Positions 12,846 to 62,199 are shown, counted from the first letter of the stretch. The stretch is DNA of 64,000 nt from Lentisphaerota bacterium (GCA_030590485.1 JAUUYL010000005.1:6084-70083), one strand, 5' to 3'. The notes: generated by a model from the sequence alone, not told the origin. A program made the numbers and translations.

Positions 12846-16328
<3,483 letters not shown>

Positions 16329-43808: not shown

Positions 43809-45176
43809 GTGAGCAAGACGTACAGGATAAAAAAGGGATTTGATATCGGATTGGCGGGACGGCCGTTAACCGAGCTTTCTGATGCATCCGCTGGATCTAC
43901 GGTGGCGGTTTATCCTCTTGAGTATACGGGCTTTAAGCAGCGTCTGAAGGTTACGGAAGGCGACGCCGTCAAACGCGGAACCGAATTGCTTGAGAACAAA
44001 AAGAACGTGAGACTCAAGATTTGTTCGCCAGCTTCAGGGAAGATTAAAAAAATCATCCGTGGCGAACGTCGGTTTGTCGAAAAGATCATCATCGAGACCG
44101 ATGAAAGCGGAGAGGCGGAGCGCTTCGGGCAATATACAGCCGATAAGATATCCGGTTTATCGAAAGATGATGTGATCAATCAGCTCCTGAGTACTGGGTA
44201 TATGGCATTTATCCGCCAACGCCCGTTTGGCGGAATAGCCGACCCTGAAGCTTCACCAAAATCTGTTTTTGTGAACGCTATGAATACCGGGCCATTTCAG
44301 GTGGATGCAACTGTTGCGGTTGGCGTTGATGCCGAAGGTTTTCAGGCTGGTCTGGATATTCTCACCCGTCTAACCGATGGGGCTGTACATTTGTGTGTTG
44401 GCCCTGAGGCTGGCGAGGTTCTCAAACAGGCAAGTAATGTGCAGGTGCATGTTTTTAAAGGGAAGCATCCTGCAGGTAATACAAGTGTTCATATCAGCAA
44501 GATTGAACCCATGGCGTCGACGGATGTTGTTTGGACTGCTAAAGCCGTCGATGTTGTTCTGATAGGAAGACTCTTTCTTGATGGTGAATTGCCTACAACG
44601 AGGGTTATCGCGATTGGCGGACCGGGCGTTAAGAAGGAATTTTGTAAGCATTATCGTGTAAACATTGGCGGCGAACTGGGAGGTTTGCTTTCTGATGCGC
44701 TGGTTGATGGTGAACAGCGTCTGATAAACGGAGACGCGTTGACTGGAGAGACGGTGGAGGCGAGTCCTAGCCTGCGCTTACAGCAGTCGGCGTTGACGGT
44801 TGTGCCAGAGGGGCGCACACGTCAGTTTCTTGGCTGGGTGGAGCCTGGATTTAATCAGATGAGTTTTTCCAGGTTATGCGCGTCGACATTTATTGGCGGC
44901 CGTAACCGAAAGTGGAAATTGGACACCAACACACATGGGGGTGTTCGCGCGATGGTCTTTACTGGATATTATGACAAGGTCATGCCGATGAATATAATGG
45001 TCGACTATCTTGTCAGGGCGGTGCTGGCTGGCGATACTGATGAGTCTATCAGCCACGGCATACTGGAGACGCTTCCGGAAGACTACGCGTTATGTGAATT
45101 TATATGTCCCTGCAAGATGGAATTGCAGGAGATAATAGCCGACGGCTTGAAGATGATAGAAGAAGAAGGGATATGA
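43809..45176 (+). CDS. nqrA: Na+-translocating NADH:quinone oxidoreductase subunit A
   Basis: From GTG 43809: 'VSKTYRIKKGFDIGLAGRP...' matches the canonical NqrA N-terminus ('..IKKGLDLPIAG'). It is first in the gene order nqrA-F. Confidence 0.9.
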   Translation: MSKTYRIKKGFDIGLAGRPLTELSDASAGSTVAVYPLEYTGFKQRLKVTEGDAVKRGTELLENKKNVRLKICSPASGKIKKIIRGERRFVEKIIIETDESGEAERFGQYTADKISGLSKDDVINQLLSTGYMAFIRQRPFGGIADPEASPKSVFVNAMNTGPFQVDATVAVGVDAEGFQAGLDILTRLTDGAVHLCVGPEAGEVLKQASNVQVHVFKGKHPAGNTSVHISKIEPMASTDVVWTAKAVDVVLIGRLFLDGELPTTRVIAIGGPGVKKEFCKHYRVNIGGELGGLLSDALVDGEQRLINGDALTGETVEASPSLRLQQSALTVVPEGRTRQFLGWVEPGFNQMSFSRLCASTFIGGRNRKWKLDTNTHGGVRAMVFTGYYDKVMPMNIMVDYLVRAVLAGDTDESISHGILETLPEDYALCEFICPCKMELQEIIADGLKMIEEEGI

Positions 45177-47746: not shown

Positions 47747-47846
47747 GAATGGACAGTACGACAGTAGGACAGTGGACAGTGAATGGGGAAAAGTACCCTA
47801 CCGTCCATAGTCCTCGGACTATAGTTCCGGGGCAGGGGGAGATAAC
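47747..47846. repeat. Structured intercistronic repeat element (copy 2) with a tandem heptamer array
   Basis: GGACAGT-A-CGACAGT-A-GGACAGT-GGACAGT (47751-47780), then ACCCTACCGTCCATAGTCC-TC-GGACTATAG and CCGGGGCAGGGGGAG. It is alignable with the nqrA-nqrB spacer. Confidence 0.85.
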
Positions 47847-56160: not shown

Positions 56161-58287
56161 TTATGTGAGGCTAATATTAACGTAATAAGCTGCCAATGTG
56201 CTGATAGCGGACTTGACGGTTGCTTCATCCCCTATGATATCTGACTCGAGATTCATTTTTCCCAGTTCTTTTGCGGTCGGAATGCCTATGGAAAGGATGG
56301 TCTTGCTCGAAAGTGCCTCGGCACCCCACAGTTCAGAGAAGGCCAGGACTGCTGATGCGCTGGCAAAGAATACAGAATCGAAATCAGGTAAGGAGTCATA
56401 TCTTACGGGTTTATTTTCGTACAGAACGCAATCGGTAATATCGGCGCCCAACTTGCCCAATTCTTCTGCCAATGAAGTACCTGCCTTATCAGCACGGAGT
56501 CTCAATATGCGATCGCCTTTGTTGATGCAAGGTTTGATGGTGTTTACGACGGAAGTAGCGTTGAATCCCGAATCGGGCATTGCATCAGGAGTTATGCCTC
56601 TTTTTTTGAACTCATCAGCCGTTCCTGTTCCGCATACGAGTACCTTGGGGACTGAGCGAAGGTCTATATTGTTGGCTGAAGCTATATCAAAGAAACATCG
56701 TGCGGCAGACGGGGAGGTGACAACCATCCAGTCATAGGTCTCGATGTTTGCAATATCATCGATTGCGGCATTTAGAGGGACAAGATCAATAAGGGGGCGT
56801 TGAACGGGTATACCACCCAGATCGGAAGTAATGCGTGAGGCCTTTTCCTGTAGAGCTTCGCTGCATGTCAGAAGAATCTTGTTGCCTTTGAGTGCGCCGT
56901 AGGATGTGTAGGAATATGCAGTGGTTTCACCAACCAGCAGTAACCCCGGGAGAGATGCAAGTGATGAGTGATGAGTGATGAGTGATGAATGGAGCTCGGA
57001 CAACGGTGATTTGATTATTTGTTCATCGTCTGTTCCAGCGGCAAATACGATTGCAGCCGGTGTGTCCGGTGCAACACCATCGTCTGTCAGTTGTTTGGTT
57101 ACTTCTGGTATGGCTTTGGCCGCCATAAAGAAAGCGATGGGCAGCTTAGCGCGTTCGTTACCGTTGACGGGGTCTATTCCTCCGCCCTGCTTGCGAGGAG
57201 TCATTACGCAAAACCCTTTTGAAAGTCCGCGTCTCGTCATCAGCATGCCCGTTGTTGTAGTCGCCAATTGAACGCTGCTGATTCCTGGTATTACCTTATA
57301 AGAGAGCTGAAGCTTGTCGAGTGTCTCTACTTCTTCCGCAAGGCGCCCGAAAATGCCGGGATCGCCGCCTTTGAGCCTTACGACTTTACTGCCGCGCCTG
57401 GCATGTTCTGCAATGAGAGCGTTTATTGCGTTCTGATCAAGATGATGATCACCGCAGCGTTTGCCTGCATCAATTCGCAGTGCGTTAGCGGGCACGTAAT
57501 CAATAAGACCTTGAGGCATGAGTGCATCATGAATACAAACATCGCAGTTTTCGATAGCATTAATACCTGCGAGCGTGCACATGTCTGACGAGCCTATGCC
57601 GGCACCTACAAAATCTACGGACTTTGTAAAGAGGCTTCGGAGGTGTAGCATGGTCTTGTTTTCCGATTTGAAAGTAACAGCAAGATATCCTTGGCCGTCA
57701 GGAGGAGGCAGTTCGTCTTCGGACACCAGTTCGGAGATGCGGTCTTGTAAGTCTAGCCGATTAAGAGCCGCTGCCGCCATGACAAGCATATCGTAATCAC
57801 CATTATCCAATTGTTCCAGGCGACTTTCTATGTTGCCCCGTATATTTTTCAGTATGGCATTTGGAAAGCGGGTGACGCACCATGTTTCGCGACGCTCACT
57901 GCTGATGCCGACTATAGGCTCGGCTTGCAGATCGGCACTTGTTTTTCCCGCCGGCAGGATTATCGCGTCACGAGGATCTTCCTGCCATGGCAGCCAGAAC
58001 CAGTCTATATCATCCGGCATGGGGGATGGCAGATCCTTGGCGCTGTGAACAGCGCAATCTATATCCCCGTTCAATAGGGCGTCGTCGAGGTCTTTGGTGA
58101 AGAAATCCCGGGCGCTTTCACGCAGATCGGTAGATCGATCACGGTCTCCCGGTGACGAGAGTTCAATTATGTCGAATTTTATTGCCGGAAGCATGCCCTC
58201 TATCCGGTCAAGTGCGCCTCGAGCCTGAATGACGGCGAGTCTGCTGGATCGTGTTCCGGTTTTTATGGTTATGGGTCCGTTTGTCAT
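56161..58287 (-). CDS. Triple fusion: HemC-like (domains 1-2 only), uroporphyrinogen-III C-methyltransferase (CobA/SUMT) and uroporphyrinogen-III synthase (HemD)
   Basis: Start ATG 58287 (ATGA overlap with the sirC stop). Residues 1-223 align with E. coli HemC through 'GQG..' ('GTRSSRLAVIQA', 'AVHSAKDLP', 'EDPRDA', 'SSERR', 'RGNIESRLEQLDNGDYD'). The next residues are the SUMT start 'VDFVGAGIGSSDMCTLAG...LKGGDPGIFGR'. The C-terminal ~235 aa are HemD-like. Confidence 0.8.
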   Translation of the reverse strand: MTNGPITIKTGTRSSRLAVIQARGALDRIEGMLPAIKFDIIELSSPGDRDRSTDLRESARDFFTKDLDDALLNGDIDCAVHSAKDLPSPMPDDIDWFWLPWQEDPRDAIILPAGKTSADLQAEPIVGISSERRETWCVTRFPNAILKNIRGNIESRLEQLDNGDYDMLVMAAAALNRLDLQDRISELVSEDELPPPDGQGYLAVTFKSENKTMLHLRSLFTKSVDFVGAGIGSSDMCTLAGINAIENCDVCIHDALMPQGLIDYVPANALRIDAGKRCGDHHLDQNAINALIAEHARRGSKVVRLKGGDPGIFGRLAEEVETLDKLQLSYKVIPGISSVQLATTTTGMLMTRRGLSKGFCVMTPRKQGGGIDPVNGNERAKLPIAFFMAAKAIPEVTKQLTDDGVAPDTPAAIVFAAGTDDEQIIKSPLSELHSSLITHHSSLASLPGLLLVGETTAYSYTSYGALKGNKILLTCSEALQEKASRITSDLGGIPVQRPLIDLVPLNAAIDDIANIETYDWMVVTSPSAARCFFDIASANNIDLRSVPKVLVCGTGTADEFKKRGITPDAMPDSGFNATSVVNTIKPCINKGDRILRLRADKAGTSLAEELGKLGADITDCVLYENKPVRYDSLPDFDSVFFASASAVLAFSELWGAEALSSKTILSIGIPTAKELGKMNLESDIIGDEATVKSAISTLAAYYVNISLT
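56961..56988. repeat. Tandem heptanucleotide array (GTGATGA)x4 inside the coding sequence
   Basis: Read directly. On the coding (minus) strand it is (TCATCAC)x4, encoding 'HSSLITHHSS' at the SUMT-HemD junction. Confidence 0.95.
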
Positions 58288-58802: not shown

Positions 58803-59831
58803 CTACTGAAAATATTTCATACTCGTTTTTTTGTATTCCTTTACCGAGCAAAGCATTTTGCCGTCTGAAAGACCAGCATTATTGCCTATTTTCAGGAAAA
58901 GCTGATGTGTTTCGTCCCAGTTTCGAGTGTGTATCATAGCGAAGAGATTGTAAGGAAAGATCGGATCAATAACACGTTGGTAGCAGTGAGTAACTTCCGG
59001 GTTGGAGGCGAGTGCGCGGCCAGCTTCCAACGCCTGGTCTTCGGGTACTGACCAGGTGCACATGGCATTGGCTTTGAAGCCGATTTTGTGATGACGCAGG
59101 ATAACTGCGGTTCGCCTCAGAATGCCGTCCTTCTTCCACGACTTCAGCGTGTTGAGCATGTCCTCTACCTCAAGACCGAGCTGTTTGGCGATGTCTGCAA
59201 AAGGAGTCGGTGTTATGGGGATGTTGCCGTCCATGAGCCGAACGAGTTGTTTCTCCTCCTCCGAGAAGTTTCGAAACGTGTTATTATCCTCTTCCGTAGT
59301 AATCGGTGGAGCGCCGGGGAAACGTTCGCCCTTTTTCAGGTCTGTTGGGTTGAAGATGACATCTATCTTGAATCGGCGTATAGCCGGTAGGATGAGCAGG
59401 TTGGCAGATGCTGTGGCTTCGCGAAGTTTATTGATTTGTGCGTCAAAGTCTTCTGCCGGTGTGGCGAGGGTAAACCAGAGTTCCGGATATGATTCTGCGT
59501 GGGCTGGGAGTGATGTGTCGAGTTCCTCGGGCCAGCCTCTGAGGTAGCAGTGGGTCGTTCCGGAATTTGGGGTTACGAGCGCGGCCAATTCATCCCTGTT
59601 TTCGGGAGTCGTGGTCAGGGCGCATAAAGCACTTTTATATCCCAGTCGTCGTGCATCGAAGATGCCGCCTATACGGCGTGCTTTACCCTCGTCGAACAAT
59701 TGTTTTATCTGCGAAAGAACTTCATCTTCTGAGGATCCGAGTTCTTGTGCAATCGCATTAAAAGGATTTTTTTCAAGGGGCAGTCCTTTTTGAATGGCCA
59801 GCAGTAGTTTACTATTTTGTTCTTGGTTCAT
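58803..59831 (-). CDS. ahbAB: Siroheme decarboxylase, fused AhbA-AhbB (NirD/L/G/H-like duplicated Lrp/AsnC-type fold)
   Basis: From ATG 59831. Two homologous halves are present: 'LLLAIQKGLPLEKNPFNAIAQELG...GTTHCYLR' and 'LVRLMDGNIPITPTPFADIAKQLG...VTHCYQR...PYNLFAMIH'. The C-terminus is '...KKTSMKYFQ'. Confidence 0.85.
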   Translation of the reverse strand: MNQEQNSKLLLAIQKGLPLEKNPFNAIAQELGSSEDEVLSQIKQLFDEGKARRIGGIFDARRLGYKSALCALTTTPENRDELAALVTPNSGTTHCYLRGWPEELDTSLPAHAESYPELWFTLATPAEDFDAQINKLREATASANLLILPAIRRFKIDVIFNPTDLKKGERFPGAPPITTEEDNNTFRNFSEEEKQLVRLMDGNIPITPTPFADIAKQLGLEVEDMLNTLKSWKKDGILRRTAVILRHHKIGFKANAMCTWSVPEDQALEAGRALASNPEVTHCYQRVIDPIFPYNLFAMIHTRNWDETHQLFLKIGNNAGLSDGKMLCSVKEYKKTSMKYFQ

Positions 59832-60993
59832 AATCGCAAGATGGCTCCTCATCCATGTAGTTTCCTGTATGTGCGAGCGCCCTTGCGCGGCATCCGCCGC
59901 ACAGGCGTTTGTATTCGCATCTGCCACATTTTCCCAGGTAGTCTTCAACTCTCCTGAGGTCATTAAATATCTTTGATTCTCTGTACACCTTCATGAAATC
60001 GTAATTGTTGGCTCTTAGGTCGCCTGATGGCATATCAAAAAAACCGCATGGCTGAAGTATGCCGCGATGCGAGATAAAGACAAAGCCACGCCCGCCCATG
60101 CATCCTCCTGATGGGTGACCGCCTTTTTCTGACGACTGCTTTTGGATTCTGGCGTAATGAGGAGCGCATGTTGTCTTGACTCGGATGGGGGAGTTGAGTG
60201 ATGTTTCGTGAATCCAGTGAAGTGCTTTTTCATGCTGTTCGGGAGATATTTCCAGGTCTGTGAGTTCAGAGCCCCTGCCGGTTGGAACAAGGAAAAATGC
60301 GTCAAAGGTCTTTGCGCCGAGATCACACGCCATCTTGTAGATTGCCGGCAGGTCATCTATGTTAAGTTTTGTGACGGTTGTGTTTATCTGAAATGGGATG
60401 CCGGCATCAATAGCATGCTGAAGTCCCGCCATCGTCTTCTTGAATGCTCCAGGTGTGCCGCGGAATTCATCATGTTTTTCTTCCGAGGCTGCATCGATGC
60501 TGATACTGATCGCTTTTATACCAGCAACCTTCATCTGTTGAGCCGTTTCAGGTGTGATAAGGTGACCGCACGGTGCCATTACCGGCTGGAGGCCTTTGTC
60601 CGTCGCATAGCGTGCGATATCAAAAATATCCGGTTGCATCATGGGTTCTCCGCCCGTGAGAATAAGAATGGTTGATGGTTGCTTGCCGCCCGCCTTGACT
60701 TCAGCGGCGGCGGGATGGTTGATGGTTGGAGAGGATTTAGGTAGGTCTGTGGAGATGTTATCAATGACCTTGAAGCATTCTTCGGTCGTAAACTCTTCGG
60801 AATAGTTCTCGTCACGCGCTGAACCTCGACAGTGCCTGCATTTTAGATTACAACGCCGGGTCAATTCCCACGCAATCACGCGTGGGAATGGTTGCCTGTC
60901 CGCCTTCCTGTTCGCCGTAGCCTTGGCGAAGGCGGAAGCTTTAGCGGCGGCGGGATGGTTGATGGTTGATGGTTGATGGGGGGGATGGCTCAT
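59812..60993 (-). CDS. ahbD: Radical SAM/SPASM enzyme of the NirJ family, AhbD-like (haem b synthase); carries in-frame repeat-element insertions
   Basis: 'RVIAWELTRRCNLKCRHCRG' (CX3CX2C) and a C-terminal SPASM Cys cluster 'GKCGRCEYKRLCGGCRARA'. The AhbD versus AhbC assignment rests on the remembered '..AWE.T..CN..C.HCR' pattern and could be swapped with the neighbour. Confidence 0.65.
   Translation of the reverse strand: MSHPPHQPSTINHPAAAKASAFAKATANRKADRQPFPRVIAWELTRRCNLKCRHCRGSARDENYSEEFTTEECFKVIDNISTDLPKSSPTINHPAAAEVKAGGKQPSTILILTGGEPMMQPDIFDIARYATDKGLQPVMAPCGHLITPETAQQMKVAGIKAISISIDAASEEKHDEFRGTPGAFKKTMAGLQHAIDAGIPFQINTTVTKLNIDDLPAIYKMACDLGAKTFDAFFLVPTGRGSELTDLEISPEQHEKALHWIHETSLNSPIRVKTTCAPHYARIQKQSSEKGGHPSGGCMGGRGFVFISHRGILQPCGFFDMPSGDLRANNYDFMKVYRESKIFNDLRRVEDYLGKCGRCEYKRLCGGCRARALAHTGNYMDEEPSCDYEPRTK
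60666..60729. repeat. Composite element, internal copy: (ATGGTTG)x2, GC-rich imperfect palindrome, (GATGGTT)x2, in frame within ahbD
   Basis: GAATGGTTGATGGTTG-CTTGCCGCCCGCCTTGACTTCAGCGGCGGCGG-GATGGTTGATGGTTGG. A 26-nt identity (60703-60728) matches 60943-60968. It encodes 'SSPTINHPAAAEVKAGGKQPS', which is absent from the paralogue at the same position. Confidence 0.85.
60887..60978. repeat. Composite element, 5' copy: ATGGTTG unit, palindromic core, (GATGGTT)x3, at the 5' end of ahbD
   Basis: TCCGCCTTC...GAAGGCGGA (9-bp arms, 60899-60907 and 60928-60936) with nested TTCGCC/GGCGAA. Then AGCGGCGGCGG and (GATGGTT)x3 at 60954-60974. It either encodes the N-terminal extension 'HQPSTINHPAAAKASAFAKATANRKADRQ' or lies in the ahbC-ahbD spacer if the true start is internal. 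Confidence 0.8.
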
Positions 60994-61011
60994 AGCTCAC
61001 CAATTTTCCAA

Positions 61012-62199
61012 TTACTCCAATAATCCAATCTCTTCATCTGTGAGGTAGCAGGCTGGGTCGAAGCCCCATGGGTCGCCGGTAGACGCTTCGCCTCGGGCGC
61101 GGAAGTTACCGCCGCACACGTTGAGAAACTTGCATTTACTGCAGCGTTCGCAGACGTGCGGCATTTTGTTCTTCAGACTCGCTGTCAGCGGATTTGACAT
61201 GTCAGTCCAGATCTCGCTAAAGGGCCTTTCACGCACATTACCTAGAATATGCTGACGCCAGAATTGGTCCGGATGAACTGCGCCGTCCCAGCTGATACAT
61301 CCGATACCATTACCCGTGCTGTTGCCACCGTTCATTTCGAGTAGCTCCATGACCTGTGCCGCGCGCGGGTTACCCTCCTTAAGCATTCGCATATAAAGGT
61401 AGGGTCCATCGCAGTGGTTGTCGACGGTGAGGACTTCCTTCTCCAAGCCTCTGGTTTTCATGTCGGCTGTTCGGTCGATGATATAATCGACCATCTCGCG
61501 GGTTTGTTCGTGGGTAAGGTCGTCTTTGGCAATGTCTGCACCGCGCCCGGTATAGACCAGATGGTAAAAGCATACTCGAGGAACGTCTTCAGCTTCCAAG
61601 AGATCGAATATACCGCCGATATCTTTGGCGTTGTGTTTGGTTATGGTATATCTGAGACCCACCTTGATGCCTGCTTTTTTGCAGGCACGAATGCCGGCCA
61701 GTGCGCCTTGGAATGCACCTTTCACGCCGCGAAATTTATCGTTCGTTGCTTCGAGTCCATCCAGACTTATGCCGACGTATGAAAGGCCGACTTCTTTCAG
61801 TTGTGCAGCCTTTTCTTCGGTTATCAATGTGCCGTTAGTTGAAATGACCGCGCGCATACCTTGGGCCACGGCATAGTTCGCCAGTTCCGGAAGATCTTTC
61901 CTGACCAGTGGTTCGCCGCCTGAGAAGAGAAGGACAGGAGACCCGAAAGAGGCCAGATCATCAATAACGACTCTTGCTTCTTCGGTCGACATCTCATTCT
62001 CGGCTTTGCCCGCGTTAGCCTGGGCATAGCAATGAATACATTTCAGGTTGCATGCGCGTGTGATGTTCCATACAACAACAGGTTTTTTATCCTCTGAAAA
62101 CTGTAAAAGATGGCTGGGCAGCTCGCTGGATTTGCGTCCATAACGAAGTGCGTCTGATGGCTCGACTGTGCCGAGATAAAGTTTTGAAATTCCTATCAT
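61012..62199 (-). CDS. ahbC: Radical SAM/SPASM enzyme of the NirJ family, AhbC-like (Fe-coproporphyrin III synthase)
   Basis: 'VVVWNITRACNLKCIHCYA' (CX3CX2C) and SPASM cluster 'CERCSKCKFLNVCGG'. It is the first gene of the haem operon. The assignment versus AhbD is tentative. Confidence 0.65.
   Translation of the reverse strand: MIGISKLYLGTVEPSDALRYGRKSSELPSHLLQFSEDKKPVVVWNITRACNLKCIHCYAQANAGKAENEMSTEEARVVIDDLASFGSPVLLFSGGEPLVRKDLPELANYAVAQGMRAVISTNGTLITEEKAAQLKEVGLSYVGISLDGLEATNDKFRGVKGAFQGALAGIRACKKAGIKVGLRYTITKHNAKDIGGIFDLLEAEDVPRVCFYHLVYTGRGADIAKDDLTHEQTREMVDYIIDRTADMKTRGLEKEVLTVDNHCDGPYLYMRMLKEGNPRAAQVMELLEMNGGNSTGNGIGCISWDGAVHPDQFWRQHILGNVRERPFSEIWTDMSNPLTASLKNKMPHVCERCSKCKFLNVCGGNFRARGEASTGDPWGFDPACYLTDEEIGLLE

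Follow-up and report, generated by a model that had tools for sequence, protein, structure and literature searches.

Two in-frame inserts in the haem b synthase gene ahbD built of heptamer arrays and a dispersed 30-nt stem-loop

How can an essential gene come to hold the same block of DNA twice and still keep its reading frame? The question is raised by ahbD, the gene of haem b synthase, a radical S-adenosylmethionine (SAM)/SPASM enzyme, in a 64,000-nucleotide stretch of DNA from a Lentisphaerota bacterium (GCA_030590485.1, JAUUYL010000005.1:6084-70083), which is called the window below and whose origin is Kiritimatiellia-like, within the Planctomycetes-Verrucomicrobia-Chlamydiae (PVC) group. 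A 26-mer, AGCGGCGGCGGGATGGTTGATGGTTG, occurs exactly twice in the window, at 60703-60728 and 60943-60968, while 0 occurrences were expected (100 shuffles); an original prediction made from the sequence alone had already pointed to this identical block. The two occurrences belong to two inserts in ahbD, an internal one (copy A) and an N-terminal one (copy B), in which tandem heptamers surround a core. Both segments are probably tolerated selfish-DNA insertions that were built in layers, in the manner of Rickettsia palindromic elements (RPEs) and repetitive extragenic palindromes (REPs).

Two inserts that keep the reading frame of ahbD

The block common to both inserts extends to 30 nt with 1 mismatch, and the inserts are 240 nt apart (Table 1). 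On the coding strand the heptamer is CAACCAT, three units of which, (CAACCAT)3, translate as QPSTINH; in its plus-strand form, ATGGTTG, it is found 16 times in the window, and 8 of these 16 are within ahbD. Copy A consists of a 15-nt array, a 33-nt core and another 15-nt array, so that its length, first put at 63-64 nt, is 63 nt or 21 codons. Its half-arrays agree in phase across the core (phase match 1.0 at shift 0), and the 5' array of copy B was recognized by Tandem Repeats Finder with period 7, 3.7 copies and 100% match. Both inserts lie in the open reading frame (ORF) of ahbD and keep its frame, as had been predicted. The earlier description of a heptamer-flanked palindrome holds for the palindrome, by the family covariation presented below; the flanks, however, are direct repeats, a single array split in phase, and not inverted arms. 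Folded as single sequences, the coding-strand cores were only slightly more stable than shuffles (z = -1.6 and -2.0) and gave no strong hairpin; as a test of the hairpin, it was set aside for family covariation.

The position of the inserts was examined in an alignment of 29 AhbD proteins, and DNA was obtained for the five closest orthologues. Canonical AhbD reads IDxIAxFxKPILILTGGEP between helix alpha1 and the GGE strand, without an insert. Extra residues at the internal site are present only in the five closest relatives (67-85% identity), where they vary in sequence and length. The alignments to TIGR04545 and to PqqE (6c8v) both break exactly at this site. In the AlphaFold model of AhbD, with a mean predicted local distance difference test score (pLDDT) of 82.8, low confidence is restricted to the two inserts, at residues 1-31 and 88-103; the internal one (residues 88-103, pLDDT < 50) is found between helix 70-82 and strand 109-113, before the GGE strand. 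The absence from canonical AhbD, the break in the PqqE alignment and the structure model support the proposal that the internal copy is a loop insertion. Judging by the general radical-SAM fold, this loop would be on the face of the barrel opposite the cluster and the SAM site. The inserts are predicted to encode disordered peptides, which by the same fold would be remote from the active site.

In the window and in the loci of two related genomes (L001 and L002), an ATG is located 18-24 nt past the ahbC stop. Copy B is therefore a translated N-terminal extension and not a spacer, which decides between the two possibilities that the original prediction had offered. TIGR04545 matches AhbD in two stretches (E = 3e-118) with the break at profile position 46/47, and the CX3CX2C, GGE and SPASM cysteine columns are invariant among the aligned proteins. 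The score of 395 bits is below the curated NCBIfam cut-off of 500 because the two inserts lower it, although the AhbD is genuine; automatic annotation would probably call the protein just "radical SAM protein", as sources do for its relatives. The upstream gene ahbC (61012-62199) precedes ahbD by 18 nt, and both belong to a complete Ahb haem operon.

Table 1. Features of ahbD and its two inserts in the window
Feature	Position	Strand	Description
ahbD (haem b synthase, radical SAM/SPASM)	59812-60993	minus	intact ORF, 393 aa; TIGR04545 match and invariant cysteine columns
ahbD start ATG	60991-60993	minus	position kept in L001 and L002
Internal composite insert (copy A)	60667-60729	minus	63 nt, 21 codons; encodes SPTINHPAAAEVKAGGKQPSTI; not in canonical orthologues
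Copy A promoter-distal (CAACCAT) half-array	60667-60681	minus	two units; in phase with the other half
Copy A core	60682-60714	minus	33 nt; coding strand CCCGCCGCCGCTGAAGTCAAGGCGGGCGGCAAG; diverged 30-nt family member with 3-nt indel
Copy A promoter-proximal (CAACCAT) half-array	60715-60729	minus	two units
N-terminal insert (copy B)	60888-60982	minus	array, 60-nt core and single heptamer
Copy B single CAACCAT	60888-60894	minus	3' of core on coding strand; reads QPF
Copy B core	60895-60954	minus	60 nt; outer element e1 with inner e2 nested inside
e1 (outer element)	60937-60954 and 60895-60906	minus	30 nt once e2 is removed
e2 (inner element)	60907-60936	minus	near-consensus 30-nt TCCGCCTTCGCCAAGGCTACGGCGAACAGG; encodes SAFAKATANR
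Copy B 5' array	60955-60982	minus	(CAACCAT)x3 and one degenerate unit; reads HQPSTINH
AhbD peptide segments			PTINHPAAAEVK; SAFAKATANR

Two further repeats were observed next to the inserts. A perfect inverted repeat at 60864-60889, with arms of 10 bp, ATTCCCACGC/GCGTGGGAAT, and a loop of 6 nt, directly abuts the final CAACCAT of copy B. Its arms encode AWEL, which is conserved in AhbD, and FPR, which is not; by a rough estimate, 64 kb should contain about 0.6 repeats of this kind. An 8-nt repeat, ATTGGNNN, is present in about 3.6 units at 61000-61029, where it covers the end of the ahbC coding sequence and the spacer between ahbC and ahbD, and units resembling it are also found in L001 and L002.

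A 30-nt stem-loop family shared with unrelated contigs

When four metagenomes were mapped at 80% likeness, positions 60895-60950 drew dozens of unrelated contigs, which matched either strand and differed in their flanks, and the summed depth reached 200-700 in three runs and about 60 in the fourth. An 18-mer of copy B matches 22 viral contigs whose flanks are unrelated, at least 120 loci in JGI metagenomes contain a 21-mer that is degenerate at two positions, and some contigs carry 3-4 family copies. The consensus of 127 unique instances is TCCGCCTTCGCCAAGGCTACGGCGGACAAG, with conservation limited to exactly 30 nt and background on both sides. Positions 12 and 15 covary (C-G 77, T-A 44, mixed 4; in a further count, C-G 56 and U-A 29), as do positions 1 and 26 (U-A 37, C-G 32, A-U 3), the observed score being reached by 0 of 500 shuffles. 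In the deduced structure, the outer stem of 6 bp (NCCGCC/GGCGGN') is separated by a 3x3 internal loop from an inner stem of 3 bp (GCY/RGC), and the CAAG tail is unpaired. The GC content of the host contigs extends from 31 to 73%, and one of them is from Patescibacteria, judged by its ClpC. Open spans of at least 600 nt contain 52% of the elements, compared with 74% of control positions.

Rfam gave no match to the element at E <= 10, six of its 15-mers had no occurrence in the literature text searched, and no description of the sequence was found there. The idea of gene-less copies of a protein-bearing cassette was dropped for the 30-nt family, as no neighbour gene family recurs in about 140 loci. 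When the array/core junction AACCATCCCGCCGCCGCT was scanned in a genome contig collection, it gave 104 single matches in unrelated GC-rich genomes, none of them with heptamer context.

The window contains one strong and two diverged copies of this family. The strong copy is e2, which agrees with the consensus at 28 of 30 positions (41.4 bits with the family model R1, E = 3e-8). What is left of the copy B core without e2 is exactly 30 nt, CCCGCCGCCGCTAAAGCTAAGGCGGACAGG; in ungapped comparison 23 of its 30 positions agree with the consensus, which was bettered by 0 of 5000 shuffles, and this outer element, e1, bears a covarying GCT..AGC variant. Read from its sequence, copy B is one element nested in another after position 18, and the single N-terminal element of the original prediction has to be replaced by two. 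Nesting at the same offset was found in five independent metagenome loci: L153, L182 (twice), L205 and L243. At these loci an inner copy often belongs to another subtype than the outer copy that surrounds it, so that simple local duplication is excluded. Nested copies enter at CT^AC, which reads GT^AG on the complementary strand.

Among all R1 matches in the window, the core of copy A ranks second (13.2 bits, E = 0.44), at a site specified in advance. This core agrees with the consensus at 17 of 30 positions without gaps (p = 0.009); its 5' 16 nt are nearly identical to e1, and it differs by a 3-nt indel. R1 alone does not establish copy A or the cores of L001 (E = 0.2-3.4), whose membership comes from targeted ungapped comparison and shuffles. 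Elsewhere in the window, R1 gave a weak palindromic match at 44206-44240, TATCCGCC-11 nt-GGCGGAATAGCC, on both strands (E = 0.7-1.0) and within a long ORF; this match may represent a decayed member of the family or a chance resemblance.

The element is also found in frame in other genes. Among open frames of 250 codons or more, 49 run across a family element. Ten frames were scanned for Pfam domains and nine had strong ones. In seven the element is located inside or between domains, namely in MiaA (two orthologous contigs), a heavy-metal P-type ATPase, PepA, ClpC, an ATP-grasp protein and a MiaB-like radical-SAM enzyme; two others, HolA and a Ser/Thr kinase, have it shortly before the N-terminal end of the matched domain. 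The commonest translation, xFAKATAxK, is the frame used in AhbD, and the consensus is open in 5 of 6 frames by our own reading. As in ahbD, the ClpC insert is common to close relatives and decaying (PASAKASAGK). The RPE-like family that had been suspected is thus real in being dispersed and in frame in essential genes, while its unit is the 30-nt stem-loop and not the 63-nt composite.

Heptamer arrays, related loci and a proposed history

Flanks of period 7 were detected in 7 of the 127 elements, compared with 1 of 127 distal controls, and lag 7 was outstanding among the lags tested. Examples include L124 (a phage contig in which two copies flank one gene), L152, L165 and L173. The arrays run in phase across the element, without duplication, in copy A, at the N-terminal site of L001 (L001_N), in L124 (twice) and in L152; in L173 and L165 there is a one-base offset. 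The runs of heptamers resemble an array that existed first and was later invaded by the core. In two cold-seep metagenomes, X1 and X4, two contigs combine ATGGTTG arrays with a copy-A-type core (4 differences) in quite different flanks, and both are open in the frame reading INHPAAAEVKA (our own translation of 30-nt loose ends). The heptamer-plus-core composite therefore exists at other loci of the community; the depth of the X1 composite contig is 4.9, compared with 6.1 for the window organism. Another X1 contig is identical to copy A (0 differences) and gives independent read support for it.

Other heptamer arrays were observed both in the window and outside it. At 56960-56988, an in-frame (CATCACT)x4 on the coding strand of a hemC-cobA-hemD fusion reads HSSLITHHSS and takes the place of a variable linker; the orthologues in two further related genomes (L108 and L109) are without the array. 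The nqrD-nqrE spacer (47750-47846) holds GGACAGT units followed by partly complementary ACCGTCC, and a divergent spacer (16286-16311) holds (AAAGTTG)x3.7; R1 found no 30-nt family copy at either place. Of the kinship with the nqr spacer elements that had been assumed, only the presence of heptamer runs is left: the family model finds nothing there and the nqr runs are inverted, not direct. In L124 (4064-4671; IMG/VR), the spacers on either side of a 131-aa gene are made of several heptamer arrays (ACTCGAT, ATTTACA, AATATTC), each spacer being interrupted by one 30-nt element. L165 (1260-2260; a metagenome contig) has a 1-kb spacer of about seven 62-nt tandem units made of NTCGAAC heptamers, with four 30-nt elements interspersed, and two of the three copies in L182 are at the same 188-nt spacing as in L165.

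Related genomes show the two ahbD sites in different states. L001 (77-81% identical) has CAACCAT units at both sites; the N-terminal site holds one core, and the internal site holds two core-plus-heptamer units of 37 nt in tandem. Its three cores agree with the consensus at 22-23 of 30 positions without gaps, were bettered by 0 of 5000 shuffles and are on the opposite strand, which favours independent insertion into existing arrays over simple vertical descent. L002 (85%) has decayed traces only, without an N-terminal core, and L108 (70%) has kept a remnant; in more distant relatives, DNA similarity at the internal site was judged by eye only. In a related ahbD contig of X4, the first units are followed by decayed heptamers, with no core in the 30 nt visible. 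Since relatives share the occupied sites, both sites were occupied before these lineages split, and the inserts are not recent arrivals, with the exception of the nested near-consensus e2. The sequences at the two sites turn over fast, copies within one genome being closer than same-site copies between genomes. No other proteins with the copy A peptide (region 72-113) were found in a search made uninformative by length limits and E-value stringency.

From these data we infer a history in three steps. The ancestor of a small PVC (Kiritimatiellia-like) clade may have gained tandem CAACCAT arrays at two permissive places of ahbD, one in the N-terminal tail and the other in the surface loop that joins helix alpha1 to the GGE strand. 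The 30-nt REP-like stem-loop would then have entered the arrays without target duplication and spread between them, likely by gene conversion or short-range copying with the identical heptamers as homology. In the window lineage, a fresh near-consensus copy would have entered the N-terminal copy after position 18, at CT^AC, as a preferred self-target. The mobilising enzyme could be a trans-acting, single-strand-specific HUH/Y1 transposase of the REP-associated tyrosine transposase (RAYT) or IS200/IS605 type, and repeat arrays might be favoured because they expose single strands; both are guesses. As 30 nt make 10 codons, no duplication is added and 5 of 6 frames are open, every insertion is frame-neutral. 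The frame is kept in both copies for this reason, selection removing only copies in intolerant places.

Several other explanations were weighed against this history. A low-complexity insert that arose by slippage and was duplicated within ahbD, its likeness to outside sequences being compositional, would suit two copies 240 nt apart that share a 30-nt block, the 37-nt tandem duplication at the internal site of L001, and the greater likeness within a genome than at the same site between genomes. Such a purely local origin is already largely refuted and very unlikely, as e2 agrees at 28 of 30 positions with a consensus from more than 120 unrelated contigs in which conservation ends sharply, the L001 cores in reverse orientation were bettered by 0 of 5000 shuffles, the nesting geometry recurs elsewhere with different subtypes, and the same composite is present at other loci. 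The hairpin may instead be a functional cis-element under selection, such as an mRNA stabiliser, an RNase site, a translational pause or a binding site of a conserved host protein, its mobility being secondary or extinct. Such roles have been proposed for REPs (PMC3733652), and they would agree with a near-identical sequence across genomes of 31-73% GC, with the clear stem covariation and with some enrichment outside long ORFs (52% in long spans vs 74% of controls). Yet copies decay after insertion in the ahbD and clpC lineages, occur in both orientations in unrelated genes and spacers with no common neighbour, and have no match in Rfam, and self-nesting is hard to explain by function; a cis-element is thus considered unlikely.

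Perfect tandem heptamers of 2-3.7 units in an essential gene might act as a phase-variation switch for haem synthesis, with the gain or loss of one unit shifting the frame, and simple sequence repeats near N-termini are classic contingency loci (PMC4692102). The ahbD arrays are short, however, no length variants of them were present among the mapped contigs, those of relatives are decayed yet in frame, and the array of the cobA/hemD fusion merely replaces a variable linker, which makes a switch highly improbable. Slightest of all is the chance that the peptides are adaptive, an Ala/Lys-rich N-terminal helix or linker giving AhbD a new interaction or localisation: AlphaFold places a helix at residues 15-28 and the inserts persist across the clade, but the pLDDT of that helix is about 40, the peptide sequence is not conserved among relatives, its reading orientation differs, and the same DNA element is translated in unrelated proteins.

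The reading of both segments as layered selfish insertions also has points against it. Around about 140 loci, neither a transposase nor a PF05635-like or other recurrent neighbour was seen. The element is absent from the plasmids of PLSDB (7.3 Gb) and from cultured-phage genomes (2.3 Gb), where only partial matches at chance level appeared, so that no cultured host is at hand. R1 finds a single strong copy in the 64 kb of the window and none in the 39 kb of relatives, and copy A alone is only weakly like the consensus. Covariation covers two position pairs, because the search pattern fixed the remaining positions. The opposite orientation in L001 could also have come about by in-situ inversion of a quasi-palindrome. 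Finally, no indexed run covers 60743-61010, the stretch with copy B, which has no independent reads.

A wider proposal is held tentatively, at somewhat less than even chances: TCCGCCTTCGCCAAGGCTACGGCGGACAAG may be an active, trans-mobilised DNA, near-invariant across distant phyla (PVC, Patescibacteria and others) and phages, which targets itself at CT^AC as well as heptamer arrays and adds disordered 10-residue loops to essential proteins. The near-constant sequence and the fixed position of nesting point to a sequence-specific propagation machine working across very different hosts. If the proposal is true, the element would be among the smallest such mobile elements known, the first common to several phyla, and frame-neutral by design. 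The recurrence of the element itself accounts for odd peptides in proteins predicted from metagenomes (…AFAKATADK…, …LRQGYGGQ…, …RSLGEGG…), alignment breaks in essential enzymes, and the under-scoring of genuine orthologues by curated models such as TIGR04545. It also ties heptamer arrays, a long-noted class of bacterial repeats, to a defined insertion process, and offers a natural experiment on the protein loops that can accommodate 10-20 additional residues.

Comparison with known repeat systems

REPs are GC-rich stem-loops of 20-40 nt, some of which lie within genes, as in the PVC bacterium Opitutus terrae (Di Nocera et al. 2013, PMC3733652). The present element resembles them as a short GC-rich stem-loop of 30 nt with an unpaired 4-nt tag at one end, and its 6-bp outer and 3-bp inner stems fit the REP format of a 20-40 bp stem-loop with a 5-13-bp stem. 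Non-complementary trinucleotides likewise separate the stem from a loop with GCC/GGC termini, and units are located inside real genes of PVC bacteria, at times twice per ORF, without target duplication. The terminal GTAG/CGTC of REPs is lacking: the tag is CAAG/CTTG, and GTAG is only internal, on the complementary strand, where nested copies insert. The element also differs in its exact 30-nt length and in that its sequence is common to distant phyla and phage contigs, whereas a REP family belongs to one species or genus. No RAYT association was seen, and no neighbouring ORF family recurs in about 140 loci.

RPEs, said to have been described by Ogata and co-workers in 2000, are reportedly palindromic selfish DNA inserted in frame at surface-exposed positions of functional, often essential genes. 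In-frame insertion into functional protein genes is found here as well (AhbD, MiaA, ClpC, PepA, P-type ATPase, HolA). RPE-1 is about 100-150 bp, Rickettsia-specific and CGTC-tagged (PMC3733652). By this description, the present element is a different sequence family, with 30 nt, a CAAG tag and a PVC host; it spans phyla and is associated with heptamer arrays.

The small dispersed repeats (SDRs) of Nostocaceae, attributed to Elhai and co-workers (2008), are said to be structured mobile repeats of 21-27 nt, often located in tandem heptamers and often self-nested. Both features are shared by the element, which has period-7 flanks (7/127 vs 1/127), in-phase arrays and nesting at five loci and in the window. 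SDRs are confined to Nostocaceae (PMC5861425). The element, whose host is not a cyanobacterium, is probably unrelated to them in sequence, judging by the description of SDRs, and in-frame intragenic insertion is not an SDR hallmark. Heptanucleotide tandem repeats are known as the short tandemly repeated repetitive sequences (STRRs) of cyanobacteria and as the GGGAATC repeats of Xanthomonas (Rehm et al. 2015, PMC4692102). The ahbD arrays are similar to them as short perfect 7-nt runs, typically of about 4 units and dispersed in the genome; those repeats, however, are mostly intergenic, G-rich and under-represented in coding DNA, whereas CAACCAT is in frame in a gene and is split by a hairpin. 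Miniature inverted-repeat transposable elements have terminal inverted repeats of 15-30 bp, a target-site duplication and a length of 70-300 bp, unlike a 30-nt unit in arrays that stay in phase without duplication.

The small intragenic palindromic repeats known from Rickettsia and Opitutus are lineage-specific families, whereas here one 30-nt sequence is common to phage contigs and to bacteria of no fewer than two phyla. By this sharing across phyla the element differs from REPs, RPEs and SDRs.

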